This document shows, piece after piece, positions 5,003-24,622 of a stretch of DNA of 43,627 bases. Below the pieces are notes generated by a model, which searched no databases, was not told the origin of the DNA, and saw only the letters and a list, made by a program, of their open reading frames with translations. Position numbers and translations under genes: made by a program. Within the stretch, counting starts at the first letter, position 1. Each line of letters begins with the position of its first letter. Origin of the DNA: Escherichia phage TheodorHerzl; the sequence record MZ501107. The stretch is one strand, 5' to 3'.

Positions 5003-5006
5003 TTAG

Positions 5007-5580: not shown

Positions 5581-5668
5581 GAATTTTGCGATTATTTTTA
5601 TCACTGATAATATTAGAGGCGTGAAGTCGAGCGGGTGGCCTGCTCTGCCACAATCCCAGGGGGATAGC

Positions 5669-6367: not shown

Positions 6368-6467
6368 TAAGCAGATTGCCCGCGAAAGCGGGCAATTTTG
6401 CGAGCGCGTAAAACTAAGGTAACATTAATGCCACTGGGCGAATGCTCACAACTCAAAGGATTTCGAT

Positions 6468-7568: not shown

Positions 7569-7584
7569 TCTACGCACATCAAAA

Positions 7585-7613
7585 ATGGGCGGGCTTATGC
7601 CCGCCTTTTTTAT
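7585..7613 (+). terminator. intrinsic terminator after the capsid gene
   Basis: GGGCGGGC-TTAT-GCCCGCC followed by TTTTTTAT. Confidence 0.75.
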
Positions 7614-7626
7614 AGGAGCAAATAAG

Positions 7627-8127
7627 ATGTATGGCGACCCGCAAACCTTTGTCGATTATGCCGCTGCGCGAGGCGTTGAAATTACGCTGGGCGATGCAAC
7701 TCGACACCTTACCGTCGTTAATGACTTCCTTAACGGCATCAACTGGATCGGCGAACAAGCGGACCAGACCGGAATCGACGCATGGCCCCGCATCAATTAC
7801 CCATCGGACGGTAAGCCGGTGCGCGACACGCTAACCGAAGTCGTGGCGGTAGTGCCTGTCGGGCAAATCGTAGACTTTGCATCAATCCCCGTTGCCGTTG
7901 AGCAAGCTGTTTACCGGCTGGCGCTGTTGGTGGCGGACGAGATCGATATTTCTCCGGTCGGCGATGGTAAAGAGACTATCCGCGAAACGGTCGGCCCGAT
8001 CACGATGGAATATGACCCGGCGTCGATTGGTAGCGGGGTGTCGTTCCCGTGGTGGGATGGCTTGTTAGGCCACTGGGTTGATTCAGGCGGCAACGCCGCA
8101 GGCAATTTCGACGTATTCAGGGGGTAA
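7627..8127 (+). CDS. head-tail connector / adaptor protein (putative)
   Basis: 166 aa from ATG 7627 with RBS AGGAG. Position between capsid and tail genes; no specific motif recognised. Confidence 0.45.
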   Translation: MYGDPQTFVDYAAARGVEITLGDATRHLTVVNDFLNGINWIGEQADQTGIDAWPRINYPSDGKPVRDTLTEVVAVVPVGQIVDFASIPVAVEQAVYRLALLVADEIDISPVGDGKETIRETVGPITMEYDPASIGSGVSFPWWDGLLGHWVDSGGNAAGNFDVFRG

Positions 8128-8128
8128 T

Positions 8129-8248
8129 ATGAATCCTGCATTACTCGCGGCGATAATCGCCGCCAACACTAAACAGCCGCCGGAACAAGAACCGGAGCCA
8201 GAACAAGTACAACCGGCACAGGAGAGCGAAGAAGATGGCGGGCTTTAA
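8129..8248 (+). CDS. small acidic Pro/Glu-rich protein (39 aa), hypothetical
   Basis: ATG one nt after the upstream stop, RBS AGGGGG. Translation MNPALLAAIIAANTKQPPEQEPEPEQVQPAQESEEDGGL. Its stop overlaps the next gene. Below the ORF-track size cutoff. Confidence 0.3.
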   Translation: MNPALLAAIIAANTKQPPEQEPEPEQVQPAQESEEDGGL

Positions 8249-8588
8249 TTACGCAGGATTAAAGCGGAAAGTGAATCCGCTGATTAAAAAATTCGGCATG
8301 ACCGTTACGGTTACGCGTCCGGGATCGGTTGACCGTGTAGACGGCGACGAAGTGGTAATCCCGCCAACGTCGTTTGACGTCATCGGTCTTCGCGAGGAGT
8401 ACAAGCCTAGCGAGATCGACGGAACGCGTATCGTTGCCGGTGATGTGAAGTTTTTATGTCGGGCGGTTGAGCAATTGCGGGTGGGCGACCTTGTTAACCT
8501 GAACGGCACTGACTACAGGGTCATCAACCCAAACCCCCTGCAACCGGCTGGCACAACCATGCTGTTTCAACTACAGCTAAGGGGGTAA
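8235..8588 (+). CDS. head-tail joining / head closure protein (putative)
   Basis: 117 aa in the connector region. Assignment by synteny and size only. Confidence 0.45.
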   Translation: MAGFNYAGLKRKVNPLIKKFGMTVTVTRPGSVDRVDGDEVVIPPTSFDVIGLREEYKPSEIDGTRIVAGDVKFLCRAVEQLRVGDLVNLNGTDYRVINPNPLQPAGTTMLFQLQLRG

Positions 8589-8589
8589 C

Positions 8590-9183
8590 GTGGCTGAAGT
8601 CTACTCGTTCGCCGCCACTATTGCTACGTGGGTGGATAAGACGAAGGAGAACAACGACAAGGCGGTGCGGGCGTACGGTATGCAAATACTCGGACGCCTG
8701 ATCGAGATCTCCCCAGTGGGCGACCCGCGCCGATGGAAAATTAACAGGGCTTACGCGCTCGCCCGCCAGCACGCAAACAAGGTGAACGCCGCACAGCGTC
8801 GCAAGAATGGCGGCAAACTGAAGCGCGGTCAGAAGAAGCACGCCAGTGTGCTGGTATCATTCAAAACTAAAAACGGCAACGTCACGTTCCGCCAGCGCGG
8901 CTGGGCCGCGAAGAATTACACCGGGGGGCGCTTCCGGGGGAACTGGCAGGTGACGTTCGACCGCCCGGCTGTTGGCGCTATTGACCGCGTGGACAAGGCC
9001 GGAACGGCAACATTAGCCGCTGGGCGTGAAGTGCTGGCACATTACGATTCGAGTGAATACGGGTCGATCTGGTTTACTAACAACGTGCCATACGCGCAGC
9101 GCCTAGAGTATGGCTGGAGTAAACAAGCGCCCGCGGGGATTGTTCGCGTAGTAGCGGCAGAAATTAATTCGAAGGTGAAATAA
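8590..9183 (+). CDS. neck / tail-completion protein (HK97 gp10-like, putative)
   Basis: 197 aa with GTG start and RBS AAGGGGG. Position between head closure and tail genes. Confidence 0.45.
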   Translation: MAEVYSFAATIATWVDKTKENNDKAVRAYGMQILGRLIEISPVGDPRRWKINRAYALARQHANKVNAAQRRKNGGKLKRGQKKHASVLVSFKTKNGNVTFRQRGWAAKNYTGGRFRGNWQVTFDRPAVGAIDRVDKAGTATLAAGREVLAHYDSSEYGSIWFTNNVPYAQRLEYGWSKQAPAGIVRVVAAEINSKVK

Positions 9184-9605
9184 TGAGCAATACTCTAATC
9201 CGCAAGGCGCTTAACCGCGTGGTAGAAGATTTATCGGTAAGCCTGAGCACCAGCCAGCGACCGATCCTTGTTAACTGGGAGAACGTGCAAGGGGACCACG
9301 CAAACGGCAGCGGTGTCTACCTGGAACCATATCTGCTTCCGGCCCCTACCCAGTTTGTGGGCTTCCAGCAGAAGGGCCGGATCTATGCAGGCGTGTATCA
9401 GATTGCCGTGGTATTTCCTGCGGGCACTGGCACACAGTATGCGAGCGAACTGGCGGACGCCATCGCGACGTCTGACAAGTGGCAGGCCGTAAGGCTTACC
9501 GGCGCTGCGTTCCAGCTTCAAGACGCGCCATACACCAGTTCGGTGATTGAGGATGTTGATCGCGCCCGCATCGTGGTTACAGTACCCTACACCTGTTGCG
9601 CCTGA
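9183..9605 (+). CDS. tail terminator-like protein (putative)
   Basis: 140 aa with ATG overlapping the upstream stop; lies immediately upstream of the major tail protein. Confidence 0.45.
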   Translation: MSNTLIRKALNRVVEDLSVSLSTSQRPILVNWENVQGDHANGSGVYLEPYLLPAPTQFVGFQQKGRIYAGVYQIAVVFPAGTGTQYASELADAIATSDKWQAVRLTGAAFQLQDAPYTSSVIEDVDRARIVVTVPYTCCA

Positions 9606-9665
9606 TTTGGCGCAATTCTGCGCGTGCTGTATCATTAAACCGTATATCTAAACAGGAGCTTTATT

Positions 9666-10391
9666 ATGGGTTATCAACTTCCCAACGGGTCCAGCGTCCA
9701 GATCGGGTCCGTATTAGGCAGCGGCATCGCGGTTACGGCAGCTACCAACGCCGCGGCGTCAATCTCCGATCTTACGCAAGGTTGCGTAATTACCTGCGCG
9801 GCTTTGCATGGTCTGGTTGTTGGCGACGTTGTTATGTTCACTAAAACCCCGTGGGTCCGAGCGCTTAACCGCGCATTCATCGTGGGTAAAGTGGACGCCA
9901 ACGACGTTACGCTGGCGCGCTTCGACACCGAAGACGTCACAAAATACCCGACCGGCGCTTTCAGCGTAGGCACTCCAGGCGAAGTGGTGAAGGTGTCGGG
10001 CTTTATCGACTTCCCTTTCATTACTAACGTTGCCGTGTCTGGTGGCGACCAGCAGACGACTACCTTCCAGCCGTTGCAGGTGAACACCGCAATCAGTCTG
10101 AACACCACGAAAAACCCGTTGGTACAGACTTACACTTTCACCCACGACGAAGAAGACCCGATCCGCCCAATCCTGGAAGACCTGGACGACACACAGAAAA
10201 CCACTGTGATTAAGTTCACGAACCCAGCGGCAGCAAGCGGCAAAGGTGAAATCCGTATTTACCCTGCTAAGGTATCTTTCCAGAAGATTCCGTCCGCTGA
10301 AGTAAACAACGTGGAAACGGTGCAGTCCACTCTGACCATGCAGTCTGATATGGTTATCTACCGTAAGGACCTGGTCGAGGCGTTGTCTTGA
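9666..10391 (+). CDS. major tail (tube) protein
   Basis: 241 aa with RBS AGGAG, followed by a terminator and then the G/GT chaperone genes. Canonical siphovirus order. Confidence 0.7.
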   Translation: MGYQLPNGSSVQIGSVLGSGIAVTAATNAAASISDLTQGCVITCAALHGLVVGDVVMFTKTPWVRALNRAFIVGKVDANDVTLARFDTEDVTKYPTGAFSVGTPGEVVKVSGFIDFPFITNVAVSGGDQQTTTFQPLQVNTAISLNTTKNPLVQTYTFTHDEEDPIRPILEDLDDTQKTTVIKFTNPAAASGKGEIRIYPAKVSFQKIPSAEVNNVETVQSTLTMQSDMVIYRKDLVEALS

Positions 10392-10421
10392 TTTGGTCGC
10401 TTAAATAGCGAGTGTTAATAT

Positions 10422-10448
10422 GGGGCCAGCAAGGCCCCTTTTTTTATT
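10422..10448 (+). terminator. intrinsic terminator after the major tail protein
   Basis: GGGGCC-AGCAA-GGCCCC followed by a run of eight T. Confidence 0.75.
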
Positions 10449-10461
10449 GGAGAATATTACA

Positions 10462-10824
10462 ATGGCTAAAGCACCACTCTTTACACTTGACCCTAAGCCG
10501 ACCTTTAAGCTGCCGATTGAGATCCCGCGCCCTGGTGAGAACGAACCAGGCAAGATGACGTTTACCGTCCGCCACCGCCCTATCGACGAATTTTCGCAGA
10601 CCATGCAGGACACCGAACGCAAGTTGTCGGAGTATGACGACAATGACCCGGACGGCTTTAACGTTATGGTCGAGGCCATCATGCACGTCGCAGAAGGCTG
10701 GAATCTGCCGGACGAATTTAACGCGGAGAACGTCCGCCGCCTGGTGGTCAACTATCCACGCGCGTTCGGTGTGTTCCACACTTCGTACTATCTCGAACTG
10801 ATGGGATTGCGTGAAAAAAACTAA
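10462..10824 (+). CDS. tail assembly chaperone (G-like)
   Basis: 120 aa from ATG 10462. Ends MGLREKN* with a slippery A-run at its 3-prime end; an open -1 frame continues downstream. Confidence 0.75.
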   Translation: MAKAPLFTLDPKPTFKLPIEIPRPGENEPGKMTFTVRHRPIDEFSQTMQDTERKLSEYDDNDPDGFNVMVEAIMHVAEGWNLPDEFNAENVRRLVVNYPRAFGVFHTSYYLELMGLREKN

Positions 10825-11138
10825 TTGAGGCGGCGCGACGCTTTTATGGCCCGCCGCCACCCTCCGAAGATTTAGCCGCAAGTTTATGGGGTGCGACCCC
10901 CGAAGATGTTTGTCCGCCTGTTGCGCTGTGGCCTGACAACGCGAAGATAGTCGCAGTCTTCACAGATTGCGCCACGCAATGGCGCACCGGATTTGGTGGC
11001 GCATACGGCATCGACTACGGCGTGATGGAGTGGTTATTTAAGATGCACGGTATCGAAAACGAGCAGCGCGCGTTTAAAGATATCAAGCTAATGGAACGAA
11101 TCGCGCTTGATGAGATGGCGCAGCAGAACCCCGCATAA
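10462..11138 (+). CDS. tail assembly chaperone GT fusion, produced by -1 frameshift near 10815-10821
   Basis: The -1 frame extension reads LIEAARRFYGPPPPSEDLAASLWGATPEDVCPPVALWPDNAKIVAVFTDCATQWRTGFGG...MAQQNPA and sits where the T-extension is conserved in siphoviruses. Confidence 0.6.
10815..10821 (+). other. programmed -1 ribosomal frameshift site (A AAA AAC)
   Basis: Heptamer A_AAA_AAC spans the last codons of the G-like ORF. The -1 frame (codon starts divisible by 3) stays open to TAA at 11136-11138. Confidence 0.65.
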
Positions 11139-11258
11139 TGAAGCGGGACAGGCGGGACGTCCCGTTTTGTCCCACCCCTGTGAAACTGCATACCTACTCA
11201 CTTCCATTGCATAATATAAAAGCGGGACAGGCGGGACGTCCCGTTTTGTCCCACCCCA
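11136..11258. repeat. direct repeat: two copies of a ~39-bp unit AAGCGGGACAGGCGGGACGTCCCGTTTTGTCCCACCCC spaced ~80 bp
   Basis: The unit appears identically at about 11141-11178 and 11220-11257. Each contains the palindrome GGGACGTCCC flanked by GGGACA and TGTCCC. Confidence 0.85.
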
Positions 11259-11299
11259 CAAAAGTGCATACGTATTCGGTTTTCGTGCATAAAACAAAC

Positions 11300-11400
11300 T
11301 GGACAAAAAGCGGGACAAACACTAGGCGGGACAAAGCGGGACAGCACCCCGTCCCAGCCAGTGCTGCCGCGGTTTTCAGCCGATCGGGACAGCGGGACAG
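11300..11400. repeat. GGGACA iteron block A
   Basis: Repeated GCGGGACA(A/G) units; about 70 bp is nearly identical to 38636-38705. Confidence 0.8.
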
Positions 11401-11405
11401 CACCC

Positions 11406-11453
11406 CAGTCTTTCAGACTAGACGGGGGTCAACGGCCCCCCTCGTCTGAGACT
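11406..11453 (+). repeat. conserved long imperfect hairpin A (copy of 38757-38803)
   Basis: CAGTCTTTCAGACTAGACGGGGGTCAACGG(C5-6)TCGTCTGAGACT followed by GAATAA. Inverted arms TCAGAC/GTCTGA and GGGGG/CCCCC. This copy appears to carry one extra C relative to copy B, judged from the reading frame of the overlapping ORF in the track. Confidence 0.75.
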
Positions 11454-11522
11454 GAATAAGGTTTGTTTTGAAATCGCTGATACAATATCCATCGGCAACT
11501 GCATAAAAAAGGGGACTGCATA

Positions 11523-14165
11523 ATGGCAGATCAGGCAGCAGGCATCACGCTAAAGGCTGATGTTGCACAAATCAGAACGGCAAATACTGTGCTGGACTCC
11601 TTCGCACAGAAATCCGAGAACACAGAAAACAAGGTTAAGAAATTAAACGACACCCTCGGCAAATCCAAAAAGGTGACGAGTGACGCCGCGGGCGGAATGG
11701 AAAAGCTGGCAAACGAATCGCAGCGCGCCGCCGATGGCATGACGAAACAGGAGCGACTCGCCAACAGGTTAGGGATGTCGACTAAAAACCTGGGCTTTGC
11801 CTCGCGTAACGCCGCATTCCAGCTACAGGATATTGCGGTAACGCTTGAGATGGGTATGCCGGTTCACCGCGTCATGCTTCAGCAGTTACCGCAGCTAACT
11901 GGGGCGTTCGGTGGACTGGGTAACACGCTGCGTTATGTTGCGGGCTTCCTCGGCCCAGTAGGGATCGGCCTCGCCGCCGTAACGGCAACGTTAGGCGTGG
12001 GCGTGGCAATTACGTCCCGCGCAGAGAACCAGGTCGCCGCGCTTAACAAGACGCTGGCGCTGTCAGGTAACATTTCCGGCCTGACGGCAAACCAGATCCT
12101 GGTGTTATCCGAGAACGCCGAGCGCATGGGCGGATCATTCCGCAAGACGCGTGACACAATCCAGGCGCTGGCGGCGGCGGGTGTGAAAGCGGGTGGTGAC
12201 TTCGGTGCATTGGCTAAGGTAGTGAATGACTTCGCGAAGGTGTCCAGCCAGCCGATCGAGGATGTGGTCGCGGCGGTGGCGAAGCTGTCTACAGACCCGG
12301 TAGGCGGCTTGCGAGCATTGGCTGATAAGTATCACGTCGTAAACGAAGCGCAGATCCAGCAGGTGCAGTCACTAATGACGGCTGGTCGCGAAACCGAAGC
12401 GGTGGCGCTGGCTAACAAAACAGCCGCGGCGTCGTTTACCACTATGACCAACGATATTAAGTCCAGCATGGGTACGCTTGAGCGGTCGATGAACGTCGTT
12501 ACATCGGCAGCTAAATCTATGTGGGATGCCATCCTGGATGTCGGGCGCGCGCAGTCCTCGAATGAGTCAGAGATGAAAGCGCGTGAATCATTGCAGCGAC
12601 TGACCACGGCTTACTATGCCGAGATGAAAGCGGTAAACGCTGCCGGTGGGGTGATGACCGAAGCGCAGAAAGCACGTATTAACATGCTTTATAGCGAAAT
12701 GGTCGCCCAGGAGAAAGTAGTCGCGTCGCTCACCCTGCGCAACCGTGCAGAGCGTGACAACGCCAACGCCGCGGAACAATCAGCAAAGGCGAACGAGGAG
12801 GCAAACCGCACTGCCCGCGACCGCGCCGCGTTTGAGAAGGAGTACGCAACCAACGCTAAGCGGCGCGCCGACGAGATCGCCCGCCTCAATTTGCTTAATA
12901 AGCGCGGCGTGATTAACGAGAAAGAGCTTGCCGAGGCGGTGAAGCAGGTAAACGAGCGTTACAAAGACCCCGCCCCGAAGAAGGCCGCCGCTGTTCGAGT
13001 CGATGCCGGGCTGAAAATGCTGGAGGTCGCACGGAGCGAACTGGCACAGCTTCGGGAATCAGGCAAGCAGATTGAGGCCAACTCTTCGACGCAGACCCGC
13101 ACGCAACGAGCGCAAGCGGCCCTTAACAAGCTGATTGCCGACAACGAGCAGTTAATCGCCGCGAGCAAAGAAAGGGCGCTGACGGCAGCAGAGAAGCAGC
13201 AATTAGTCGAGTTCGGACGCGTGAAGGAAGTACGTGAGCAGATCGTCGAAGAAGCCAAATTGCTGGACGCGAAAGAGAAGCAGGTCAAGGCGCACGCGCA
13301 GATCGACGCCTTCGTTAAGAACCAGAACGCCGAGCTAAAAGCCACCGCGGCGGGATATGCGCTTTCCACTCGCGAAGCGGCTAACCTGCGCGAAGAATTG
13401 CAGCTAATTGACCGCCTTAAGCGGGTGGGCGCTAGCGATACCGATATTGATCTGGCGGTGTCTAAGCTGCGCGAAGTGCAGGAAGCACAGACCGGTGCTA
13501 ATGCCTCGTTGTGGGATGGCTTCAGCCGCGGGCTTAAGGATAGCGTGGATGAAATGGGTAACTGTTATACGCAGATGGCGTCACTCACAAAATTCACGTT
13601 CGGCGCTATGCAGGACACGATGAACGAGTTTTTCGAGACTGGCAAGCTGAACGCAAAGGATATGGTTAAGTCCATCCTGAGCGAATTAATCAAGCTGGCT
13701 ACATCGCAGGCATTCAAGTCCATCGTTAACGCTTTCGGTGGTGACGGCGGCAAAAACGGATTGTTCGGCGCTATCTTCTCTGGCCTCACTAAGAATGCGG
13801 ACGGCGGAGCGTACGCAGGGGGCAATCTCGCGGCCTATTCGGGGAAAGTGGTAAGCCAGCCTACCTTTTTCAGTTATGGCGTTCAGGCGTTCGCTAAGGG
13901 CGCGGGATTGATGGGCGAGGCTGGACCCGAGGCCATCATGCCACTGAAGCGCGGGCCGGACGGGAAACTGGGCGTTGCCGCGTCTGGAGCAGGCGGAGGT
14001 ATGGTCGTGACGACTAACGTTTACACGGGGTCCGGTAAAACAGATACCAGTGTCAGCGGGCCGGACCCCCGTACCGCGCAGGCGTTCGGCAAGCAAATCA
14101 CCGAAGCGGTGAAGGCCGAGATCGTGAAAGCGACGAAACCGGGTGGTGTACTTTACAAACGATGA
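11523..14165 (+). CDS. tape measure protein
   Basis: 880 aa, largely alpha-helical and Ala/Gln-rich, with Gly-rich hydrophobic segments. Lies after the G/GT genes. Confidence 0.9.
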   Translation: MADQAAGITLKADVAQIRTANTVLDSFAQKSENTENKVKKLNDTLGKSKKVTSDAAGGMEKLANESQRAADGMTKQERLANRLGMSTKNLGFASRNAAFQLQDIAVTLEMGMPVHRVMLQQLPQLTGAFGGLGNTLRYVAGFLGPVGIGLAAVTATLGVGVAITSRAENQVAALNKTLALSGNISGLTANQILVLSENAERMGGSFRKTRDTIQALAAAGVKAGGDFGALAKVVNDFAKVSSQPIEDVVAAVAKLSTDPVGGLRALADKYHVVNEAQIQQVQSLMTAGRETEAVALANKTAAASFTTMTNDIKSSMGTLERSMNVVTSAAKSMWDAILDVGRAQSSNESEMKARESLQRLTTAYYAEMKAVNAAGGVMTEAQKARINMLYSEMVAQEKVVASLTLRNRAERDNANAAEQSAKANEEANRTARDRAAFEKEYATNAKRRADEIARLNLLNKRGVINEKELAEAVKQVNERYKDPAPKKAAAVRVDAGLKMLEVARSELAQLRESGKQIEANSSTQTRTQRAQAALNKLIADNEQLIAASKERALTAAEKQQLVEFGRVKEVREQIVEEAKLLDAKEKQVKAHAQIDAFVKNQNAELKATAAGYALSTREAANLREELQLIDRLKRVGASDTDIDLAVSKLREVQEAQTGANASLWDGFSRGLKDSVDEMGNCYTQMASLTKFTFGAMQDTMNEFFETGKLNAKDMVKSILSELIKLATSQAFKSIVNAFGGDGGKNGLFGAIFSGLTKNADGGAYAGGNLAAYSGKVVSQPTFFSYGVQAFAKGAGLMGEAGPEAIMPLKRGPDGKLGVAASGAGGGMVVTTNVYTGSGKTDTSVSGPDPRTAQAFGKQITEAVKAEIVKATKPGGVLYKR

Positions 14166-14172
14166 TAAAATG

Positions 14173-14201
14173 GCCCTCACATCCATCGTGGGGGCTTTTT
14201 T
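14173..14201 (+). terminator. terminator-like hairpin plus T-run after the tape measure gene
   Basis: GCCCTCAC-ATCCATC-GTGGGGGC followed by six T. Confidence 0.5.
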
Positions 14202-15586: not shown

Positions 15587-15588
15587 TC

Positions 15589-16329: not shown

Positions 16330-16937
16330 CCACATTTAAATTGTACGGCGTCTTAGGACGTCGTTTTGGTAAAGTGCATAAGCTGGACTGCTTCACACCG
16401 GGCGAAGGAATCACCGGCTTGTGTGTGAAGTTGCCAGGGTTACAAGACTTTTTAATGTCAGCCCACCTGGACAACATGATGTTCAAAGTGCGCAAGGGCA
16501 ATCACACCATGACCGGCTACGATGAGCTGGGCGAGTTCCACGGCGACCGCGTAGTGACCATCGCGCCGGTTATGACGGGCGCAAAAAGCGGACTGGGCCA
16601 ATTGCTGGCGGGTGTAGCGATCGTGGTGGCGTCGTTCTATACCGGAGGGCTTGCGACTGCCGCTTTCGGAGCTTCAGCGGCGACCGCGGCATCTATCGGC
16701 GCAGCGACGTTTTCGTTCGGGATGTCGATGGCGCTGGGTGGCGTTATGCAATTGTTATCACCGCAACCGAAGGGATTGCAAACACGGCAGGACGTGGATA
16801 ACAAGGCGTCGTATGCGTTCGGCGGACCGGTAAACACGACCGCGCAAGGTACGGCACTTGGTGTATTATGGGGCGAGCGTGAGATCGGCGGCGCTATTAT
16901 TTCCGCCGGAATCGTAACCGAGGACTTGAACGAATGA
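16320..16937 (+). CDS. tail assembly protein I-like
   Basis: 205 aa with a Gly/Ala-rich hydrophobic C-terminal half, lying between the K-like and J-like genes. Confidence 0.7.
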   Translation: MAMTTFKLYGVLGRRFGKVHKLDCFTPGEGITGLCVKLPGLQDFLMSAHLDNMMFKVRKGNHTMTGYDELGEFHGDRVVTIAPVMTGAKSGLGQLLAGVAIVVASFYTGGLATAAFGASAATAASIGAATFSFGMSMALGGVMQLLSPQPKGLQTRQDVDNKASYAFGGPVNTTAQGTALGVLWGEREIGGAIISAGIVTEDLNE

Positions 16938-19900
16938 CGATTATCTACGACGTCACGGGCCATAAAGGCGGCGGTGGCAAGCAGCACACCCCACAGGAGA
17001 CGCCTGACAGCCTGCATTCGCTGGCTAAAATCCGCATCTTGCTCGCGCTGGGCGAAGGTGAGTTCGAAGGCATTACCGACCCTAACGAATTACGGCAGCG
17101 CGTATACCTGGACGGAACACCGATCCAGAACGCCGACCGGTCTGAAAACTTCCCAGGCGCGCGCGTGGAGTTCCGCCCAGGCACGCAGCATCAAGACGTG
17201 ATTCACGGATTTTCTGCGGTGGAAAGCGAGCAAACAGTGGGCGTAAAACTGGAAAACGGCACGCCGTGGGTGCGCCAGATTAATGACACCAGTCTTGACG
17301 CCGTGCGCATTCGAATCGGCATTCCGGCCCTATACACTAACGAAGATAATGGCGACCTGGTGGGCGGGCGCATCGACTATAAGATCGTTGTGTATACGGA
17401 TAACGCCGACCCGCGTGAGTTCAGATTCGCCGCCGTTGGTAAAACAATGTCGCTATATGAGCGCGACCACCGCATCGAATTACCGCCGAACGTGAATACC
17501 GGCTGGCGAGTGGAGGTGCACCGCATAACGGCAGACTCCACATCGGCGAAAGTGGTGAACGATATTCAGGTGCAATCCATCACTGAGATTATCGACGCCC
17601 GCCTGCGTTACCCGCTAACCGCGCTGTTGTTTGTGGAGTTCGACGCCAAAGCGTTCCAGAACATCCCGCGCGTGTCCATCAAGTGCAAAGGCCGCAAAGT
17701 TCTAATACCGAACAACTACGACCCGATTAATCATACCTATTCCGGGGACTGGGACGGCACGTTTAAACGCGCATGGACGGATAACCCCGCGTGGCACTGG
17801 TACGATATTTGTATTACTGAGCGCTTCGGCCTCGGTCGGCGTATCAAACCGCAAATGTTAAACCGGTACGCGCTCTACCAGATTGCGCAGCGCTGCGATC
17901 AGTTGGTCAGCGACGGCAACGGTGGTCGAGAAATCCGCTTTAAGAATGATATGTACATTCAGTCACAGACGGATGCCTGGACCGTGCTTAAGGATTTAGC
18001 CGCTATCTTTGCCGGTATGACCTGGTGGGGAAATCAGATGTTGAATATCGTCAGTGACCAGCCGGTCGCAGCGGTATCGCACACCATCACCAACGCCTCG
18101 GTCATTGATGGTCGATTCGACTACGCGTCCGGTAGCCAGAAAACTCGGTATTCCACATTCGCGGTAGCATACGGCAACTCGAAGAACCACTATGAAGATG
18201 CCATTGCTACGGGGCAGCGTGTCGAACTGGTACGCCGCCATAAGATTAACCGTCTGGATATAACGGCGATCGGCTGTACGCGTGAGTCAGAAGCGCAACG
18301 ACGTGGGCACTGGGCGCTAATCTCCAACCAGCTTGACCAGCAAGTTAGCTTTAAGGTTGGCATGGAAGGACTATTCTTTATTCCGGGTAGCGTAGTCGCG
18401 ATCGCCGATACAAACATTTCTGGAGGCTTCGAGACACGCGGCGGTCGCCTGTTGTCGGACCCTGGCACGCGTACCGTGCTTAACACTGACAGCGAAATCA
18501 CATTCCGCCCTGGTGATAAGTTCCTGGTGCGCACCGATAGCGGAAATGTGGAGACTCGCGAGATCGCCAGCGTCAACGGCAACAAGGTTACGCTAAAAAC
18601 CGCACTGGACGCCGACCCGATTCCTGATCAGCCGTTTTGCGTCGATGGCAACGATATCCAGTTGCAGAAGTTCCGCATCACCGACCTGGAATATGACGAC
18701 TCTACCAGCACTTTTTCAGTGCGCGGGATCGAGTACAACGATAGCAAATATGATGCCGTTGATAATGGCGCTCGCCTTGACCCTGGCATCTTTACGCAAG
18801 TGCCTGACGGCGTAATGAAGGGGCCGGAGTCAGTGACCATCACCCCGTCGCAGATTTCATCGCAAGGCCAGCTAATCACCAACGTGGATATTGTATTCCC
18901 GCCGGTGAAGGACGCCGTGGTGTATGAAATCCAGTGGCGACGTACCAGCTTGCAGAATATGGCGATCCAGTGGGGAAACGACTGGGTAAACATCCCCCGC
19001 ACGGCATCGAACGGCGCTCACATCCCTAACGTGTTCTCCGGTAACTACCAGGCACGCGTCCGCGCAATCGGTATGGGCGAGATTTCGTCCCCGTGGGTGT
19101 CGTCCGCTATCACGCCGATCGAAGGTCGTCTCGGCGGGCTTAACGCGCCAATCATCACCAACGCGATTTCGGGCCTCCACCAAATTTTGTGGAAGTGGAA
19201 CCACAACAACGCCGCGACGGATATCTCTTACACCGAGCTTGAAGTCCGCAAGACTGGTGAGACGGAATGGAAGTTCCTAACCAACGTCCCATATCCGGGG
19301 GCGGAGTATGCGCAAACGTCACTGGAGTTCGGCATCTACCAGCAGTTGCGCGCCCGCGTAGCAGATAAAATCGGCAACCTGTCGGACTGGTCGGCCCAGT
19401 TTGAAGGGCAGGTGAGTGACAAAGTTGACGAGTACATGAAGGGGCTTGATGACGAGTTCTTGACTTCCGAGGATGGTAAGCACTTCCAGGAAGCTATTAA
19501 CACGATCCCGCAAGGCATTTATGAGTCAATGCTCACCGACGCCCAGCAGCTATTCAATGCCCGCGCCGAGTATAAAGGGATTTATGCGGAAATCACGGTG
19601 GCGTATAACGTGGCGGCGGATGCCCACAAGGCGGTCGCGCAACTTGAGACGTTGATCGGCACTCGTCTTGACGATGCAGAAGCGTCGATCCACACGTTGC
19701 AGACCGCGCAAAGCACGCATGAACAAGCGTTCGCCCAGTATCAACAAACTGTTGCCGCTAAGTTCGGGGAGCAGGAATCAGCCATCCAGCAGGTACAAAC
19801 GGCAACGGCAGACGTAGCGGGAGCGCTGGCGGAGTACAAGACCCAGGTAGCGACACAGTTCGGTCAGCAGTCCGCCGCGATCGAGCAGAAGATGACGTCT

Positions 19901-20386
19901 TCGTTTAACCATGCTGGTGGTAGCGCCACCTACAGCCTTAAGGCGGGCGTGACGTATAACGGGACTTACTATGATGCCGGTATGCAGCTTTCCGTCGTGA
20001 CGTCGGGCAACGCAGTTAAATCTCGTATTGCGTTCAAGGCCGACCAGTTCTACATTATGCACCCGTCGAATGGGTCGCTTTCGTCCGCGTTTATCGTTGA
20101 CGGCGGTCAGGTGTATATTGACACGGCGCGCATCAAGGACGCGTCCATCAATTTCGCGCAGATCACGGACACGCTGCAATCAAATAACTTCGTTTCGGGG
20201 TCACGCGGCTGGCGTATCCAGAAAGGCGGCGCTGCGGAGTTTAACGAAGTAACGGCCCGCGGCAGGCTGTACGCTAACAGTGGTGAGTTCGCTTTTAACG
20301 GACAAAATAACACCGTGCAGATTAACGGGAATGGGGTTACAGTTAACCTACCCGGAGGGGGAAGGGTTGTATTAGGTGTGTTCTGA
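16934..20386 (+). CDS. host specificity / central tail fibre protein (J-like)
   Basis: 1150 aa with ATGA overlap to the upstream gene. Size and position match lambda J-type tip proteins. Confidence 0.9.
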   Translation: MTIIYDVTGHKGGGGKQHTPQETPDSLHSLAKIRILLALGEGEFEGITDPNELRQRVYLDGTPIQNADRSENFPGARVEFRPGTQHQDVIHGFSAVESEQTVGVKLENGTPWVRQINDTSLDAVRIRIGIPALYTNEDNGDLVGGRIDYKIVVYTDNADPREFRFAAVGKTMSLYERDHRIELPPNVNTGWRVEVHRITADSTSAKVVNDIQVQSITEIIDARLRYPLTALLFVEFDAKAFQNIPRVSIKCKGRKVLIPNNYDPINHTYSGDWDGTFKRAWTDNPAWHWYDICITERFGLGRRIKPQMLNRYALYQIAQRCDQLVSDGNGGREIRFKNDMYIQSQTDAWTVLKDLAAIFAGMTWWGNQMLNIVSDQPVAAVSHTITNASVIDGRFDYASGSQKTRYSTFAVAYGNSKNHYEDAIATGQRVELVRRHKINRLDITAIGCTRESEAQRRGHWALISNQLDQQVSFKVGMEGLFFIPGSVVAIADTNISGGFETRGGRLLSDPGTRTVLNTDSEITFRPGDKFLVRTDSGNVETREIASVNGNKVTLKTALDADPIPDQPFCVDGNDIQLQKFRITDLEYDDSTSTFSVRGIEYNDSKYDAVDNGARLDPGIFTQVPDGVMKGPESVTITPSQISSQGQLITNVDIVFPPVKDAVVYEIQWRRTSLQNMAIQWGNDWVNIPRTASNGAHIPNVFSGNYQARVRAIGMGEISSPWVSSAITPIEGRLGGLNAPIITNAISGLHQILWKWNHNNAATDISYTELEVRKTGETEWKFLTNVPYPGAEYAQTSLEFGIYQQLRARVADKIGNLSDWSAQFEGQVSDKVDEYMKGLDDEFLTSEDGKHFQEAINTIPQGIYESMLTDAQQLFNARAEYKGIYAEITVAYNVAADAHKAVAQLETLIGTRLDDAEASIHTLQTAQSTHEQAFAQYQQTVAAKFGEQESAIQQVQTATADVAGALAEYKTQVATQFGQQSAAIEQKMTSSFNHAGGSATYSLKAGVTYNGTYYDAGMQLSVVTSGNAVKSRIAFKADQFYIMHPSNGSLSSAFIVDGGQVYIDTARIKDASINFAQITDTLQSNNFVSGSRGWRIQKGGAAEFNEVTARGRLYANSGEFAFNGQNNTVQINGNGVTVNLPGGGRVVLGVF

Positions 20387-20390
20387 AATT

Positions 20391-20410
20391 AAAGCCCCGC
20401 AAGGGGCTTT
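20391..20410. terminator. bidirectional terminator hairpin between the J-like gene and the convergent minus-strand cassette
   Basis: AAAGCCCC-GCAA-GGGGCTTT, A/T-flanked on both sides. Confidence 0.65.
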
Positions 20411-21344
20411 AATACATGTTTGGGAGGTACGGCAGCGGAGTTGGTATCGTAACGTCGGGTCTGTTGCCGATTGCGTACCTTACAATCCGGGAGCCAGTTC
20501 CCGACCTTACATATCCGCCACTCATAACTACGCCTTTGTTTCTTAGTTCCTTATATGCTGGTATGGCCCTTGTGTTGAACCCACACCTTAGAATGGGGAA
20601 GTAAGAATCCCCGATATACTGATTGCTTCCTGACAGACTTATAAACCCGGACACAACAAAGGGCCTGGTAACTGTTGAAAGAATACAGGCGCCGTTGCGG
20701 TTAAATATGTTTAACCCCGGTCCCGGAACGGGCGCAACCATCTGGAAAATAACCAAATCCATAGTAACACTTCCGGGGGTGTGCCCTGTATCTTTTGTGT
20801 TTATGTTTGTACAAATCAACCGATTAACTCCGTCGTACTCAACAGAAACACCGGAATTGTCCCACCTGCCGAACGGTATGCCGTAGATGGGGAGGGTGTA
20901 ACTATCATGGAATGATATAGTTTGAGCAAATTTGCAGACAAGCAACCGGTCCGTTGTGGTTATCGATGTAAAATCCGTACTGTCGGCAACGTAGATCCCC
21001 TGGCCTGTCGATGCTCTAAGAACCTCAACTACAGTTCCAGAGAACTGCGTTACGCGGTCGGGATAACCATTCACAGAGCCAATAGATATAGTTCCGCTGG
21101 ATGCTGTTGACGAAAAGCCCTTTATATAATAAGCCTCAACACCCCGGTCCAGTTCGAAGGAGTATGCGCCATTGTTCGGCAGCAGAAACCTTGAAGCCCC
21201 TTCATTACCTTTAATGGGGAATGACTTGCTAAACCCGCCACTTGAAACGTTGAAGTTACCCGCAAAATTCAAGGCACGCATACCCGCGGTGATTGTCATC
21301 GGTTTACGGCCATCCTTAAGATCGATGTAAATACCTTGCGCCAT
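20409..21344 (-). CDS. hypothetical beta-rich Ser/Thr/Gly-rich protein (311 aa), possible receptor-binding or host-range accessory protein
   Basis: Minus-strand ORF against the flow of the tail operon. Its ATG overlaps the stop of the upstream lipoprotein gene (TAATG). Appears lower in GC than its flanks, by eye. No recognisable motif. Confidence 0.6.
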   Translation of the reverse strand: MAQGIYIDLKDGRKPMTITAGMRALNFAGNFNVSSGGFSKSFPIKGNEGASRFLLPNNGAYSFELDRGVEAYYIKGFSSTASSGTISIGSVNGYPDRVTQFSGTVVEVLRASTGQGIYVADSTDFTSITTTDRLLVCKFAQTISFHDSYTLPIYGIPFGRWDNSGVSVEYDGVNRLICTNINTKDTGHTPGSVTMDLVIFQMVAPVPGPGLNIFNRNGACILSTVTRPFVVSGFISLSGSNQYIGDSYFPILRCGFNTRAIPAYKELRNKGVVMSGGYVRSGTGSRIVRYAIGNRPDVTIPTPLPYLPNMY

Positions 21345-21574
21345 TAGTTCCACTCCCGGGAGCCATAATCGCGAACGGAGCCGCCATGCCCTTTAATTCC
21401 GTCATAACGAATATCAACTTCACCCGCCGGAACGACTACACCGCCTTTCCATTTAGCCACACATACGCCGCTTGCTTGCGTAGCGCACCAACCATCCGGA
21501 CGCGGGCCAGAAGAGCAACCAACAGTTATTACTACTACCGCGGCAATGATTGCGGATTTGATTAAAGTTTTCAT
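21344..21574 (-). CDS. small outer-membrane lipoprotein (76 aa), candidate Cor/Llp-like superinfection-exclusion protein
   Basis: RBS GGAGAT upstream. Signal peptide with lipobox [20 protein letters not shown], and a mature part with two more Cys. Position next to the tail fibre genes matches where T1/phi80 cor and T5 llp sit. Confidence 0.55.
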
Positions 21575-21654
21575 GTTATCATCTCCTTTATTTGGTTGAG
21601 TTTTAGTATTACACCGCTCGATCAAGAATGCAACCAATTTAAGAGGATTTAGCT

Positions 21655-23379
21655 ATGGCAGCGGGTACGCTCTCCGTAACGAACAATAGCAAGGCGGTAG
21701 TAGGGGTCGGCACAACGTTCACCGCGTTCAAGGCTGGCGACTTCTTATCGCTGGTGGTAGGGCAAGTGCCTTACACCGTAGCGATCGCATCAATCGAAAG
21801 TAACACGGCGCTTACGCTGGTGCTGCCGTTCGACGGCCCAACGGCAACCGGCCTTGCGTGGGACGGCGTTAAACGCGATACCCTGTCACTGGCAACGATG
21901 GGCGTTACCGTCCAGGCCCAGAAAGCATTGCGCTTGATGATTGCCGACGAAAACAACTGGCGTGCAATCTTCGGCGAAGAAGAAGAAATCTCGGTCACGC
22001 TACCTAACGGTCAAGTGGTGCAGGGTATGTCGTGGGGCTATTTGTCCTCCTTGCTGAAGGAAGTAGACCCCGTTGAGATGCGCAACCTTCAACAACAGGC
22101 CGAGAACGCTCGCAACCAGGCGCAAGGCTACCGTGATGAGGCGGAAGGTTTTAAAAACCAGATTAACCCTGCACTATTCGTGCAGAAGTCCCAAAACCTG
22201 AATGACGTTGCCGATAAAGCTGAGGCGCGCGCTAACTTGCAAGTTTTATTTGCGTCAAACTCTAACCTGGGGTCTACCGACCTCAACACGCTCAACAGCA
22301 CGAAGGAAGGGCGTTATTACCAGACCACATCGGTGAACGCTACACCAGAGCGTAACTACCCGTTTCAGGAAGCCGGTTGTCTTACCGTGTTTAAAACCGG
22401 CGGGGGTAGTGTGGAGGCTTGCATCCAGGAGTACACCACGTTTTCAAGCCTGCGTCGGTTCGTCCGTGCGCTCGCTGGGGCGGTGTGGACGGAGTGGAAG
22501 GAGATCTACCTGCAAGGGTCGTCCCCAACATACGAAAATATCGACTCGACAGGACGAGTTAGATCTGAAAAGGCATATCCGGCGTTCGAGTGGGTGTCGA
22601 CGAGAGTAGACGACGATTTCATCGGTAAGCGAGTCAGCATTGAGAACGACACAGGCGTTAATATGTATATGTTCTTCATGCAGAAAGACACAACCGCAAA
22701 CAGACGTGTCGTAGCGTTCGCAAGGCCAAACTCTACTGTTTTCCACTTCGTAGGATATAACGGCGGGCTACCCACAGACGGCAACAGCGCCCCGTCGGAT
22801 AACATTAACTTTAACACGCAACCGCAAGGATGGCGTATGGTGTCCGGCGGCTGGCAAAATGCACCGCTCGCCGGGAACAACTACGGGACTTTATTCACGC
22901 AGTGTGTGCAAGGTGTGTCGCAGGGGGATTCTAAAAACAGCGGCACTTCTGGCCTATGGTACTCACAGCGATATTTTAATACAGAATCGCGGGCGTTTAT
23001 CCGAAATCAAACAAACAACGCAGACTGGGGCGGGTGGTATGAATTTACTAAAACGGCAGTCTCGGATGAACGCCTGAAGAATGTAAAAGGTAATTTGAAT
23101 GTTGAAGGTGCGCTCGATAACATCAACCGCATGGAATTTAAAATATTCTCGTTTAAGGATGAGAAGGCCGGTAAGGGGTATCGTCGCGGTGTTATCTCGC
23201 AGCAGATTCGCCAGATCGATAAAGAGTACACGAAGGAGATCGGCGGGTACTATCACCTCGACCAGACACCAATGCTACTGGACGCCCTAGCGGCAATTAA
23301 GGCGTTGCGTGCGCGTGACGAGGCTAATAAAGCAGAGATTGCAGAACTGAAGGCGGCTATTGCCGAATTGAAGCAATAA
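21655..23379 (+). CDS. tail fibre protein with C-terminal intramolecular chaperone (S74-like) domain
   Basis: 574 aa with RBS AAGAGGA. The C-terminal ~105 aa begin at the SDERLKN motif and end in a coiled coil, typical of self-cleaving fibre chaperone domains. N-terminus is homologous to the 14202 gene product. Confidence 0.8.
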   Translation: MAAGTLSVTNNSKAVVGVGTTFTAFKAGDFLSLVVGQVPYTVAIASIESNTALTLVLPFDGPTATGLAWDGVKRDTLSLATMGVTVQAQKALRLMIADENNWRAIFGEEEEISVTLPNGQVVQGMSWGYLSSLLKEVDPVEMRNLQQQAENARNQAQGYRDEAEGFKNQINPALFVQKSQNLNDVADKAEARANLQVLFASNSNLGSTDLNTLNSTKEGRYYQTTSVNATPERNYPFQEAGCLTVFKTGGGSVEACIQEYTTFSSLRRFVRALAGAVWTEWKEIYLQGSSPTYENIDSTGRVRSEKAYPAFEWVSTRVDDDFIGKRVSIENDTGVNMYMFFMQKDTTANRRVVAFARPNSTVFHFVGYNGGLPTDGNSAPSDNINFNTQPQGWRMVSGGWQNAPLAGNNYGTLFTQCVQGVSQGDSKNSGTSGLWYSQRYFNTESRAFIRNQTNNADWGGWYEFTKTAVSDERLKNVKGNLNVEGALDNINRMEFKIFSFKDEKAGKGYRRGVISQQIRQIDKEYTKEIGGYYHLDQTPMLLDALAAIKALRARDEANKAEIAELKAAIAELKQ

Positions 23380-23383
23380 ATAG

Positions 23384-23409
23384 AAGGGGCCGTATGGCCC
23401 CTTTTTTAG
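23384..23409. terminator. terminator between the convergent tail fibre gene and the minus-strand early operon
   Basis: AAGGGGCC-GTAT-GGCCCC followed by six T. Confidence 0.75.
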
Positions 23410-24592: not shown

Positions 24593-24622
24593 ACTATAAT
24601 GCAACCAACCTATTGGTTGCAA
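24593..24622 (-). promoter_or_regulatory. sigma70-like promoter containing a palindromic ATTGGTTGCA pair
   Basis: Minus strand reads TTGCAA, then the 18-nt spacer CCAATAGGTTGGTTGCAT, then TATAGT. The 8-4-8 palindrome GCAACCAA-nnnn-TTGGTTGC overlaps the 3-prime end of the HAD gene. Coordinates approximate. Confidence 0.55.

Follow-up and report, generated by a model that had tools for sequence, protein, structure and literature searches.

Conserved terminators and promoter-like elements among the late genes of Escherichia phage TheodorHerzl, and two hairpins within probable replication-origin repeats

Results

Conserved terminators occur on both strands

Judged from their sequence, the hairpin-plus-T-run terminators of the late genes of Escherichia phage TheodorHerzl (MZ501107) are real and conserved, and behind most of them lies a promoter-like element that is conserved as well; the two long hairpins at 11406-11453 and 38757-38803 are probably parts of replication-origin repeats. 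The window analysed (43,627 nt) covers the genome completely; the phage is a Dhillonvirus, one of the virulent siphoviruses of E. coli that resemble HK578. A preliminary description had listed six strong terminators among the late + strand genes. Five were canonical, with a GC-rich hairpin (-12 to -16 kcal/mol) placed directly 3' of a stop codon and followed by 5-7 consecutive T, and were retained with variable loops in 7/7 other Dhillonvirus genomes, whereas the hairpin after the J-like gene had no T-run on the + strand. Compensatory stem changes were observed at the Ioannina tail-tube site (GGGGGC..GCCCCC) and at the tape-measure terminator (GTGAGGGC versus GTGGGGGC). Because identity among the compared genomes is 79-97%, this conservation counts as moderate evidence only.

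We searched both strands with a strict pattern (a stem of 6 or more bp without mismatch, 5 or more of them GC pairs, and at least 5 T within the next 6 nt). The search returned 11 distinct sites, compared to 0.27 +/- 0.49 expected (maximum 2) in 100 dinucleotide-preserving shuffles, an enrichment of about 40-fold. Over both strands there were at least 12 conserved terminators, 8 of them within 0-24 nt of the next start codon; the preliminary list had lacked three of the + strand and four or five of the - strand (Table 1).

Table 1. Terminators, promoter-like elements and repeat regions in the TheodorHerzl genome
Feature	Position	Strand	Remarks
Terminator after Rz/Rz1-like pair	4979-5002	+	conserved in 7 genomes
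Terminator after major capsid gene (Pfam Gp13-like)	7587-7612	+	conserved in relatives
Terminator after tail tube gene (Phage_tail_3)	10422-10445	+	conserved in relatives
Terminator after tape measure gene (TMP_2)	14172-14201	+	conserved in relatives
Hairpin between J-like gene (+) and DUF6453 gene (-)	20391-20410	.	no T-run on +, weak one on -
Terminator after fibre gene (Peptidase_S74)	23382-23409	+	conserved in relatives
Additional canonical terminator directly before holin ATG 41068	41034-41067	+	
Additional canonical terminator before metallophosphatase gene	42271-42293	+	
Additional canonical terminator before small terminase gene	43519-43543	+	genome wraps to position 1
Replication-operon terminator	35096-35077	-	conserved
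Replication-operon terminator	32117-32101	-	conserved
Replication-operon terminator	29121-29105	-	conserved
Replication-operon terminator	26506-26486	-	conserved
Fifth - strand hairpin, within a coding sequence	25742-25724	-	
Extended -10 TGATAATAT ahead of scaffold and capsid genes	5605-5613	+	TTGCGA 16 bp upstream; invariant, 8 genomes
Promoter-like TTGGCG-17-TATCAT (-35/-10) 5' of tail tube gene	9607-9635	+	conserved
Extended -10 TGATACAAT, 37 nt 5' of tape measure ATG	11478-11486	+	invariant, 8 genomes
Extended -10 TGTTATCAT 5' of fibre gene	21574-21582	+	
Extended -10 TGTTATATT, 3' of region B hairpin	38985-38993	+	TTGCAT -35 17 bp upstream
Extended -10 TGATATATT	42317-42325	+	conserved despite indels in flanks
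Extended -10 TGTTATAAT upstream of terminase-portal-head block	43549-43557	+	conserved in 8 genomes
Region A: GCGGGACA iterons, GGGAC/GTCCC palindromes, hairpin 11406-11453, AT-rich flanks	11139-11522	+	
Region B: same 175-nt element as region A (38637-38809), hairpin 38757-38803	38543-38960	+	

Terminator 4979-5002, the loop of which holds the stop codon of ORF 4750-4989, forms a convergent junction with the - strand ORF 5007-5519; its hairpin is symmetric and thus may work in both directions, and HK578 has annotated terminators here in its RefSeq record. Similarly, terminator 23382-23409 lies where the fibre gene and the - strand replication operon converge. The hairpin at 20391-20410 adjoins the convergent - strand gene 20409-21353, and its - strand tail (TTTAATTTC), though weak as a T-run, is better than its + strand tail (AATACATG). 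In EP23 and Maverick, J is followed instead by another hairpin and then by TCTTTTAAT. In the - strand operon terminators are succeeded by a ribosome-binding site and ATG within 13-24 nt, the layout also seen on the late + strand; the terminator at 35096-35077, for example, comes after the first of the leftward early genes, 20 nt from the next ATG.

Extended -10 elements accompany most terminators

The preliminary description had found promoters not to be obvious before the downstream blocks. This holds only for -35/-10 promoters, which showed no enrichment in positions 1-20000 (8 found versus 12.2 expected), but conserved extended -10 elements lacking a -35 (TGnTAnnnT) were present after or against most terminators. 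Within the late + strand intergenic regions (1,998 nt in all), 5 such elements were present compared to 0.49 expected (0/1000 shuffles), and 11 compared to 2.2 at a relaxed score. Every one was kept in eight genomes, including the most divergent, Ioannina, even where the flanks carried indels. They lay after or against terminators 41034, 42271, 43519 and 4979, with TGATATAGT (41027-41035) overlapping the 5' arm of 41034-41067, and others stood 5' of the tape measure and fibre genes. No promoter-like element was found downstream of terminator 7587-7612. A weak TGTTAATAT (10413-10421) adjoins the 5' arm of the tail tube terminator, and TGATAAAAT (14163-14171) adjoins that of the tape measure terminator, overlapping the TGA TAA stop codons; these -10-like hexamers may be no more than stop codons or the stretch of A that commonly precedes a terminator. 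Two promoter classes could be distinguished: early promoters with -35/-10 hexamers and TTGGTTGCA operator-like sites, and late extended -10 elements without a -35. The literature searched held no transcript data for any Dhillonvirus, so promoter and terminator activities are given here as predictions.

The pairing of terminators with extended -10 elements fits unit boundaries. It thereby argues against the view that the hairpins terminate little and chiefly protect 3' ends arising by processing or by termination elsewhere, stabilising the upstream mRNA. Such a role would suit hairpins that sit just past the stop codon of strongly expressed genes, and in phage LUZ7 hairpin stability correlates only weakly with termination efficiency (bioRxiv 10.1101/2022.03.18.484859). 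However, each hairpin is followed by a T-run of 5-7 nt conserved together with the stem, which exonuclease protection does not need, and we consider a chiefly protective role decidedly improbable.

Leaky attenuation may account for read-through of embedded terminators

It had been proposed that the distal tail genes need either internal promoters or processive antitermination. The alternative is logically sound, and the conserved promoter-like elements favour internal promoters: since most terminators are followed by such elements, their appearance is that of leaky attenuators and of plain boundaries between units. On balance we lean towards short units closed by terminators, restart promoters and three leaky attenuators, with no dedicated RNA antiterminator. 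The late (+) half would consist of short transcription units, each closed by a conserved factor-independent terminator, and a -35-less extended -10 promoter 10-90 nt past, or overlapping, most terminators would restart transcription for the lysis, terminase/portal/head, scaffold/capsid, tape measure and fibre blocks. Terminators 4979 and 23382, together with hairpin 20391, would insulate convergent + and - units.

The capsid, tail-tube and tape-measure terminators are the only ones that leave no room for a promoter. With the following start codon no more than 21 nt (ATG 7628), 23 nt (ATG 10462, tail assembly chaperone) and 6 nt (ATG 14202, adjoining the T-run) away, read-through is logically required at 7587, 10422 and 14172. 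These three would most likely act as leaky attenuators, at which the majority of transcripts would stop, so that high-copy proteins would be made from plentiful mRNAs ending in a stable hairpin, and a minority would read through to supply the head-completion, chaperone and tail-tip proteins needed in few copies. The genes with the highest-copy products, capsid and tail tube, are exactly those with an embedded terminator behind them, and attenuation matched to protein copy number would explain read-through at all three sites. Counting against leaky attenuation, an attenuator between tape measure and tail tip is not required by stoichiometry, and all three terminators look strong by sequence (6-8 GC pairs, 6-7 U), which would leave little spontaneous read-through. 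Against the model as a whole, no protein favouring -35-less promoters late in infection was identified.

In phage T7, the terminator T-phi is located after major capsid gene 10. T7 balances expression through inefficient terminators, and sequential read-through is common for phage terminators: over 60% of the LUZ7 termination sites permit substantial extension, and nested transcripts arise there as one terminator after another is passed (bioRxiv 10.1101/2022.03.18.484859). The TheodorHerzl arrangement resembles both in placing a terminator right after the most abundant structural gene, with partial read-through predicted for low-copy downstream genes. T7 and LUZ7 differ in using their own RNA polymerases, whereas annotation and domain scans indicate that Dhillonviruses encode none; read-through would thus fall to the host RNA polymerase.

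Alternatively, a phage protein could modify the host RNA polymerase genome-wide, as Xp10 p7, P23-45 gp39 or lambda N/Q do, so that elongation complexes pass embedded terminators on both strands at the proper stage; by acting against early promoters that depend on a -35, it might also shift initiation towards the late extended -10 ones. Xp10 p7 and P23-45 gp39 both antiterminate the host enzyme and prevent its initiation at -35-dependent promoters. TheodorHerzl resembles those phages in pairing -35-less extended -10 promoters of later genes with many intra-operon intrinsic terminators; no homologue of either protein was identified here, and the analogy is functional only. We regard a polymerase-modifying protein as unlikely, even though it would suit the number of terminators, their spread over both strands and their closeness to start codons, as well as the two promoter classes. 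Also in keeping with it are a strong leftward promoter (35865-35837) with a hairpin and T8 terminator about 55 nt on, resembling lambda PR'-tR', a sigma-70 region-4-like HTH in the 109-aa product of the first rightward early gene, and many small early ORFs without assigned function. However, about 20 ORFs compared with PHROGs, Pfam or NCBIfam matched no named antiterminator family, and the annotations of eight genomes name no such protein. Moreover, boxA-like sequences were not enriched, and leaky termination with internal promoters already accounts for the layout.

The two long hairpins lie in iteron arrays

The hairpins at 11406-11453 and 38757-38803 are embedded in two iteron clusters, region A (the name used in the SO-1 GenBank record) and region B. 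The GCGGGACA iteron occurred 14 times compared to 1.9 expected, and region B lies directly 3' of the primase-helicase gene (36278-38542). In nine distinct unrelated IMG/VR contigs, and more weakly in two others, an AAA_25 primase-helicase homologue ends 0-250 nt 5' of such an array, and there are phages with the array beside the primase-helicase that lack this hairpin. The recurrence of these arrays directly 3' of homologous genes in unrelated viral contigs points to replication origins, and the iteron clusters to which the hairpins belong would probably be origin elements bound by the phage primase-helicase.

The preliminary description had taken the terminator layout as circumstantial support for a role of the two hairpins in RNA-based antitermination. 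In that case they would be transcribed and act in cis, like HK022 put, to make RNA polymerase resistant to downstream terminators. Both copies have the + strand orientation of late transcription; copy B would be transcribed by polymerases reading on from the early rightward operon and precedes every + strand terminator, and copy A precedes terminators 14172 and 23382. The hairpin is also very stable (-27 kcal/mol, z = -4.1; 0/200 shuffles fold as well) and perfectly conserved in 44 instances. However, the complementary strand folds equally well, and since both arms are invariant and the apical loop alone varies, covariation gives no signal; what is constrained looks to be the sequence itself rather than the structure. 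The put element is a ~65-nt double hairpin just 3' of early promoters, and its activity needs this structure (PMC8632103). TheodorHerzl shares with HK022 (putL/putR) two conserved structured copies per genome, co-oriented with intrinsic-terminator operons, and no N-like protein was found, but each copy is a single 48-nt hairpin without an Rfam family match, set in arrays tied to primase-helicase genes even in hairpin-less phages. Furthermore, the nearest conserved promoter-like elements (11478 and 38985) lie downstream of both hairpins, and the - strand operon, equally punctuated by embedded terminators, has no copy of the element. The antitermination reading is thus unsupported, and we judge a put-like role very improbable.

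The origin reading agrees with known iteron origins beside an initiator-helicase, namely SaPI pri-rep-ori, phage P4 alpha with ori and crr, and RSF1010 oriV with ssi hairpins. TheodorHerzl differs from these in that its second cluster lies inside the tail gene block and in that neither GCGGGACA nor the hairpin was found in the literature searched; the origin is a predicted one. As in these systems, short direct and inverted repeat arrays with AT-rich flanks lie directly 3' of the primase-helicase gene. Two clusters per genome recall P4 ori and crr, and the RepA-like AAA_25 type of the helicase and the hairpin beside the iterons recall RSF1010.

Genome identity and gene layout

The 43,627-bp window was identified as the complete genome, in rotated form, of a Dhillonvirus, one of the HK578-like virulent siphoviruses of E. 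coli, with 91-94% identity to HK578, SO-1, EP23 and LF50P3 across 87-94% of the first 25 kb. This genus has been widely isolated and includes members Bas15 and Bas17 of the BASEL collection. For comparison, we used HK578 and six other genomes (UAE_MI-01, SO-1, EP23, Maverick, Ioannina and JL1). Pfam searches agreed with the gene names assigned in the preliminary description (Table). Genes on the + strand run from about 35.9 kb, through the window end, to 23.4 kb, the replication genes occupy the - strand from 35.5 kb down to 23.4 kb, and small - strand inserts are present at 5007-5519 and 20409-21574. No tRNA or tmRNA genes were found in the window. The insert at 5007-5519, which separates the lysis/head block from the scaffold gene, gave a PHROG match, annotated as a RusA-like resolvase, and a weak match to the central domain of DNA polymerase III beta. 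It carries its own promoter and two sites of the repeated motif TTGGTTGCA, and its position is occupied by other genes in related genomes.

Table. Positions of genes, promoter elements and repeat sites in the window, and viral loci bearing related repeat arrays
Feature	Position	Strand	Remarks
Major capsid protein	6468-7568	+	Pfam Gp13-like
Tail tube protein	9666-10391	+	Pfam
Tail assembly chaperone	10462-10824	+	Pfam
Tape measure protein	11523-14165	+	Pfam
J-like tip protein	16934-20386	+	Pfam
Fibre with S74 chaperone domain	21655-23379	+	Pfam
Extended -10 element TGTTATAAT	43549	+	12 nt past the 43519 terminator, ahead of the terminase genes
Extended -10 element TGATATATT	42317	+	Downstream of the 42271 terminator
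Extended -10 element TGATATAGT	41027	+	Overlaps the 5' arm of the 41034 terminator
Extended -10 element TGTTATATT	38985	+	With a TTGCAT -35
Extended -10 element TGATACAAT	11478	+	37 nt ahead of the tape measure ATG
Extended -10 element TGTTATCAT	21574	+	Ahead of the fibre gene
Extended -10 element TGATAATAT, weaker	5605	+	TTGCGA upstream; ahead of the scaffold and capsid genes
TTGGTTGCA sites	5542-5564	-	
TTGGTTGCA sites	21629-21637	-	
TTGGTTGCA sites	24600-24621		Palindrome
TTGGTTGCA sites	26516-26541	-	
TTGGTTGCA sites	35741-35749		
TTGGTTGCA sites	38961-39000		
Array-bearing loci	L009, L012, L019, L029, L035, L037, L041, L050, L056, L090, L094		GCGGGACA direct repeats and GGGAC/GTCCC palindromes

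Intrinsic terminators punctuate both strands

The preliminary description had placed intrinsic terminators at six sites along the late operon. At five of these (4979-5002, 7587-7612, 10422-10445, 14172-14201 and 23382-23409) we found canonical + strand terminators, each with 6-9 mostly G-C pairs in the stem, 3-7 nt in the loop and a run of 5-7 T, and with the hairpin beginning 0-30 nt past a stop codon in the same orientation. All five were kept in 7/7 other genomes with loops free to vary, and compensatory stem changes were detected at 10422 and 14172 in the most divergent genomes, Ioannina and JL1. The sixth site, 20391-20410, forms a good hairpin, but its + strand continuation is AATACATG, which holds no T-run; the - strand tail TTTAATTTC gives the better reading, and the hairpin adjoins a convergent - strand gene.

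A strict terminator pattern applied to both strands yielded 11 distinct sites, compared with 0.27 +/- 0.49 in dinucleotide-preserving shuffles. Further canonical + strand terminators were located at 41034, 42271 and 43519, and conserved terminators of the - strand operon at 35096, 32117, 29121 and 26506, each with the next RBS and ATG within 13-24 nt. The original list was thus largely sound, lacked three + strand and four - strand sites, and erred at one. Since terminators beyond that list occur on both strands, punctuation is a genome-wide property and not one of the late operon. Terminators after the capsid and tail tube genes and at convergent junctions are an ordinary, familiar phage arrangement by which transcript ends and protein ratios are set, and the convergent-junction sites 4979, 20391 and 23382 are predicted to be symmetric enough for insulation both ways.

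One more symmetric hairpin, at 25724-25742, carries a T-rich tail on either strand. Because it falls within a coding sequence, at the 5' end of the methyltransferase ORF 25282-25767, we left it out of the terminator count; it is conserved, though coding constraint may account for this. The stop codon (4987-4989) of the o-spanin-like ORF 4750-4989 falls in the loop of the terminator hairpin. Terminator 35096-35077 lies directly 3' of the first leftward early gene (35105-35536, - strand), whose 143-aa product is very acidic, has a centre rich in lysine and alanine and lacks a family annotation. In Ioannina (compared locus L007), a canonical terminator (GGCCGG GTAATT CCGGCC TTTTT, about 11385-11410) stands directly 3' of the chaperone frameshift gene and aligns to window positions 11125-11160, where the window and most relatives have only a GGGAC palindrome followed by TTTTG. 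This palindrome with TTTTG is annotated as a terminator in the HK578 record.

Late genes are preceded by extended -10 elements

Canonical -35/-10 matches showed no enrichment in 1-20000 (8 vs 12.2 expected), and strong matches were concentrated at 35.7-35.9 kb, where the early genes diverge. The remark in the preliminary description that promoters are not obvious before each downstream block therefore holds for the -35/-10 class but fails for extended -10 elements, which are enriched and conserved. We defined these as TGnTAnnnT, with TG one base upstream of a -10 hexamer having A2 and T6 and with no -35 needed. Scores of at least 5/6 were obtained at 43549, 42317, 41027, 38985, 11478 and 21574, and of 4/6 at 5605 and 10413. 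Within 1,998 nt of late + strand intergenic DNA, 5 elements scored at least 5/6 compared with 0.49 expected (0/1000 shuffles), and 11 compared with 2.2 were counted at a relaxed score. The late elements were conserved in 8 genomes, Ioannina included, even beside flanking indels. Additionally, the tail tube gene is preceded by a conserved TTGGCG-17-TATCAT element. Transcription from 41027 would start about 7 nt downstream, inside the 41034 stem, and such transcripts would therefore be unable to form the hairpin. Judged from this layout, the late half looks modular, with promoter, genes and terminator in succession.

No Dhillonvirus or HK578 transcription data were found in the literature searched, in which transcription of the genus appears uncharacterised. 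The predicted elements provide a testable Dhillonvirus transcription map that comprises early -35/-10 promoters with TTGGTTGCA operator-like sites, late -35-less extended -10 promoters and about a dozen embedded terminators. At 26541-26486 (- strand), two TTGGTTGCA sites accompany a TATATT hexamer 2 nt upstream of a terminator hairpin, a layout like that at 41027/41034; this terminator may stop upstream transcripts, and starts inside its 5' arm would escape it.

Three embedded terminators require read-through

The gap from terminator to next start codon is 21 nt at 7587, 23 nt at 10422 and 6 nt at 14172, which leaves no room for a promoter, and the downstream genes therefore need read-through. 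By this spacing, the genes in need of read-through would be the five for head and tail completion, the two chaperone genes and the tail-tip block of 6.2 kb. For two of the three blocks, weak -10-like hexamers set against the hairpins at 10413 and 14163 would offer an alternative, which we discounted because A-rich tracts and TGA TAA stops can mimic such hexamers. The preliminary description had argued that the distal tail genes probably need either internal promoters or processive antitermination, and had taken this as circumstantial support for an RNA-based antitermination role of the hairpin elements at 11406-11453 and 38757-38803. Our results make internal promoters likely and read-through necessary at three sites, and leave the link to the hairpins unsupported.

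The embedded terminators follow the genes for the highest-copy proteins (capsid and tail tube), and genes needed in few to a dozen copies come next. Partial termination 3' of the capsid and tail tube genes would yield a matching ratio of high to low copy number, and the terminated, abundant mRNAs would keep a protective 3' hairpin. Phage transcriptomes commonly show transcription passing one terminator after another. In phage LUZ7, more than 60% of termination sites permit substantial extension, and T7 balances its expression by inefficient terminators (bioRxiv 10.1101/2022.03.18.484859).

A genome-wide antitermination switch operated by a phage protein is a more serious rival to such leaky termination than a hairpin RNA. 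The existence of two promoter classes fits a switch of this kind, as do the strong leftward promoter at 35865-35837, followed after about 55 nt by a hairpin and T8 just upstream of the main leftward promoter, and the sigma-70 region-4-like HTH in the product of the first rightward gene. However, no candidate factor was found: about 20 ORFs scanned gave no match to N-/Q-type or other named antiterminator families, and none is named in the eight annotated genomes. Matches to the boxA-like GCTCTTTAA with one mismatch numbered 6 against 7.1 expected, none of them in a leader.

The two hairpins belong to conserved iteron regions

Hairpins A (11406-11453) and B (38757-38803) were found inside two copies of a 175-nt element (11286-11459 and 38637-38809, 88% identical) and is shared by the 157 phage records that matched, without exception and nearly always in two copies per genome. 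In the GenBank record of SO-1 these stretches are already labelled as repeat 'region A' and 'region B'; in the window, regions A and B span 11139-11522 and 38543-38960. The element begins with an AT-rich stretch containing TGCATAAA, continues with four to six GCGGGACA repeats, a GGGAC..GTCCC palindrome and two more repeats, and ends with the hairpin and further AT-rich DNA. The GCGGGACA motif, found in both direct and inverted order, occurs 14 times in the window compared with 1.9 expected, and regions A and B contain 11 of these copies. AT content is 31-36% in the iteron core and 62-73% in the flanks, except downstream of region B, where it is only 51%; the genome as a whole has 46%. Among 44 hairpin instances (31 unique sequences) both arms were invariant and only the apical loop varied; consequently, covariation gives no signal, and the constraint appears to be on the sequence itself. 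Comparison of the A and B copies across loci L001 and L003-L008 (the compared genomes) showed that apical-loop variant and upstream repeat spacing tend to match within a genome and differ between genomes, which suggests concerted evolution, by gene conversion or co-selection.

Put RNAs act in cis on RNA polymerase, through the beta' zinc-binding region. The put RNA of HK022 is a double hairpin of about 65 nt just downstream of its promoters, and its fold is required for activity (PMC8632103). In contrast to this double hairpin, the window element is one hairpin of 48 nt: a single long hairpin is both its minimum-energy and its centroid structure (-27 kcal/mol, z = -4.1), with the complementary strand equally foldable, and a single hand-drawn two-hairpin alternative, whose registration may be off, scored -1.5 compared with -23.2 kcal/mol. 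Both copies do share the orientation of late transcription, read-through from upstream units would transcribe them ahead of terminators, and copy B would precede every + strand terminator via read-through of the early rightward operon. However, each hairpin lies 5' of the conserved promoter-like element closest to it (11478 for A, 38985 for B), and the hairpins could not act on the - strand operon, which lacks the element and whose terminators are equally embedded. An antiterminator RNA role, as proposed in the preliminary description, is on balance unlikely and has no positive support. That the invariant 48-nt hairpin beside the GCGGGACA iterons is transcribed and, in this virulent siphovirus, represents a new single-hairpin class of antiterminator RNAs that act processively and in cis on host RNA polymerase, perhaps also as part of a transcription-activated origin, seems to us highly improbable.

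Rfam searches of the whole window at gathering thresholds and of 11100-11530 at E <= 10 returned only chance microRNA-like matches, and the hairpin sequence had no exact match among 185,579 bacterial and archaeal genomes. Neither the iteron sequence nor the SO-1 'region A/B' description led to anything relevant in the literature searched. As readings of the hairpins we also considered RNase III processing sites and a mobile, MITE-like repeat; recent mobility is made less likely by their constant positions in 157 genomes.

Iteron arrays adjoin primase-helicase genes in unrelated viral contigs

Region B begins 1 nt past the stop codon of the primase-helicase gene 36278-38542 (754 aa, AAA_25 domain). 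Region A does not border this gene; its neighbours are the genes for the tail chaperone and the tape measure protein. When IMG/VR was searched by DNA alone with GCGGGACARRGCGGGAC, the matches comprised Dhillonvirus contigs and many unrelated contigs, the latter with dense GGGAC/GTCCC arrays and without the Dhillonvirus hairpin. In 9 distinct unrelated contigs, and weakly in 2 more, the array lay 0-250 nt downstream of the stop codon of a same-strand ORF of 450-710 aa. The products of these ORFs were homologous to the AAA_25 helicase core of the window primase-helicase (E 1e-6 to 1e-16); their primase domains differed, and a similar C-terminal motif, K-[KR]-x-F-x-R-x(4)-L-x(3)-G, aligned with the C-terminus of the window protein. 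The simplest reading of this arrangement, which we regard as reasonably likely, is that the arrays are iteron-type origin elements bound by the C-terminal domain of the helicase. The main alternative is that they form a regulatory region for the downstream genes. On the origin reading, the two hairpin elements would belong to a probable iteron-type origin module and not to RNA regulation.

A homologue search with the 125-aa C-terminal domain, residues about 630-754, returned only 2 fragments. The single-sequence AlphaFold model of this domain was unusable (pLDDT 39.6), and its helix-helix-strand-strand order, compatible with a winged helix, is not evidence. A PDB sequence search gave only a marginal match to RSF1010 RepA (E = 0.55). 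Cumulative GC skew was uninformative on origins; its turns at about 23.4 and 35 kb merely follow transcription direction. Known systems offer likenesses: an iteron array beside a primase-helicase resembles SaPI pri-rep-ori, regions A and B resemble the two clusters, ori and crr, of P4 alpha, and the hairpin-bearing arrays resemble RSF1010 oriV with its hairpin priming signals. Array and AAA_25 primase-helicase together are probably a widespread, undescribed iteron-origin module; the more interesting lead is its repeated occurrence alongside primase-helicases across many unrelated viral contigs.

Early region and operator-like sites

The motif TTGGTTGCA occurs in 11 exact copies, mostly paired, and the pairs overlap the spacer, -10 or +1 of sigma-70-type promoters. 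Among these is the strongest leftward early promoter (TTGACA-18-TATTAT, 35762-35733), where the overlap is with the spacer. By this placement, TTGGTTGCA looks like a putative operator of a phage regulator. At 35865-35768 (- strand), a TTGAAA-17-TGtAATAAT promoter is followed, about 30 nt past the likely start, by a GCGCCG..CGGCGC hairpin with T8, an arrangement present in 8 genomes. This pair would give a transcript of about 55 nt ended close to its promoter, in a layout similar to lambda PR'-tR' or to a small RNA gene. The first rightward early gene (35938-36267, + strand) encodes a 109-aa protein, annotated as 'transposase' in most records, with a C-terminal HTH matching Sigma70_r4_2, HTH_23 and HTH_28. 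This protein is a candidate for the regulator that would act at the TTGGTTGCA or GCGGGACA sites.
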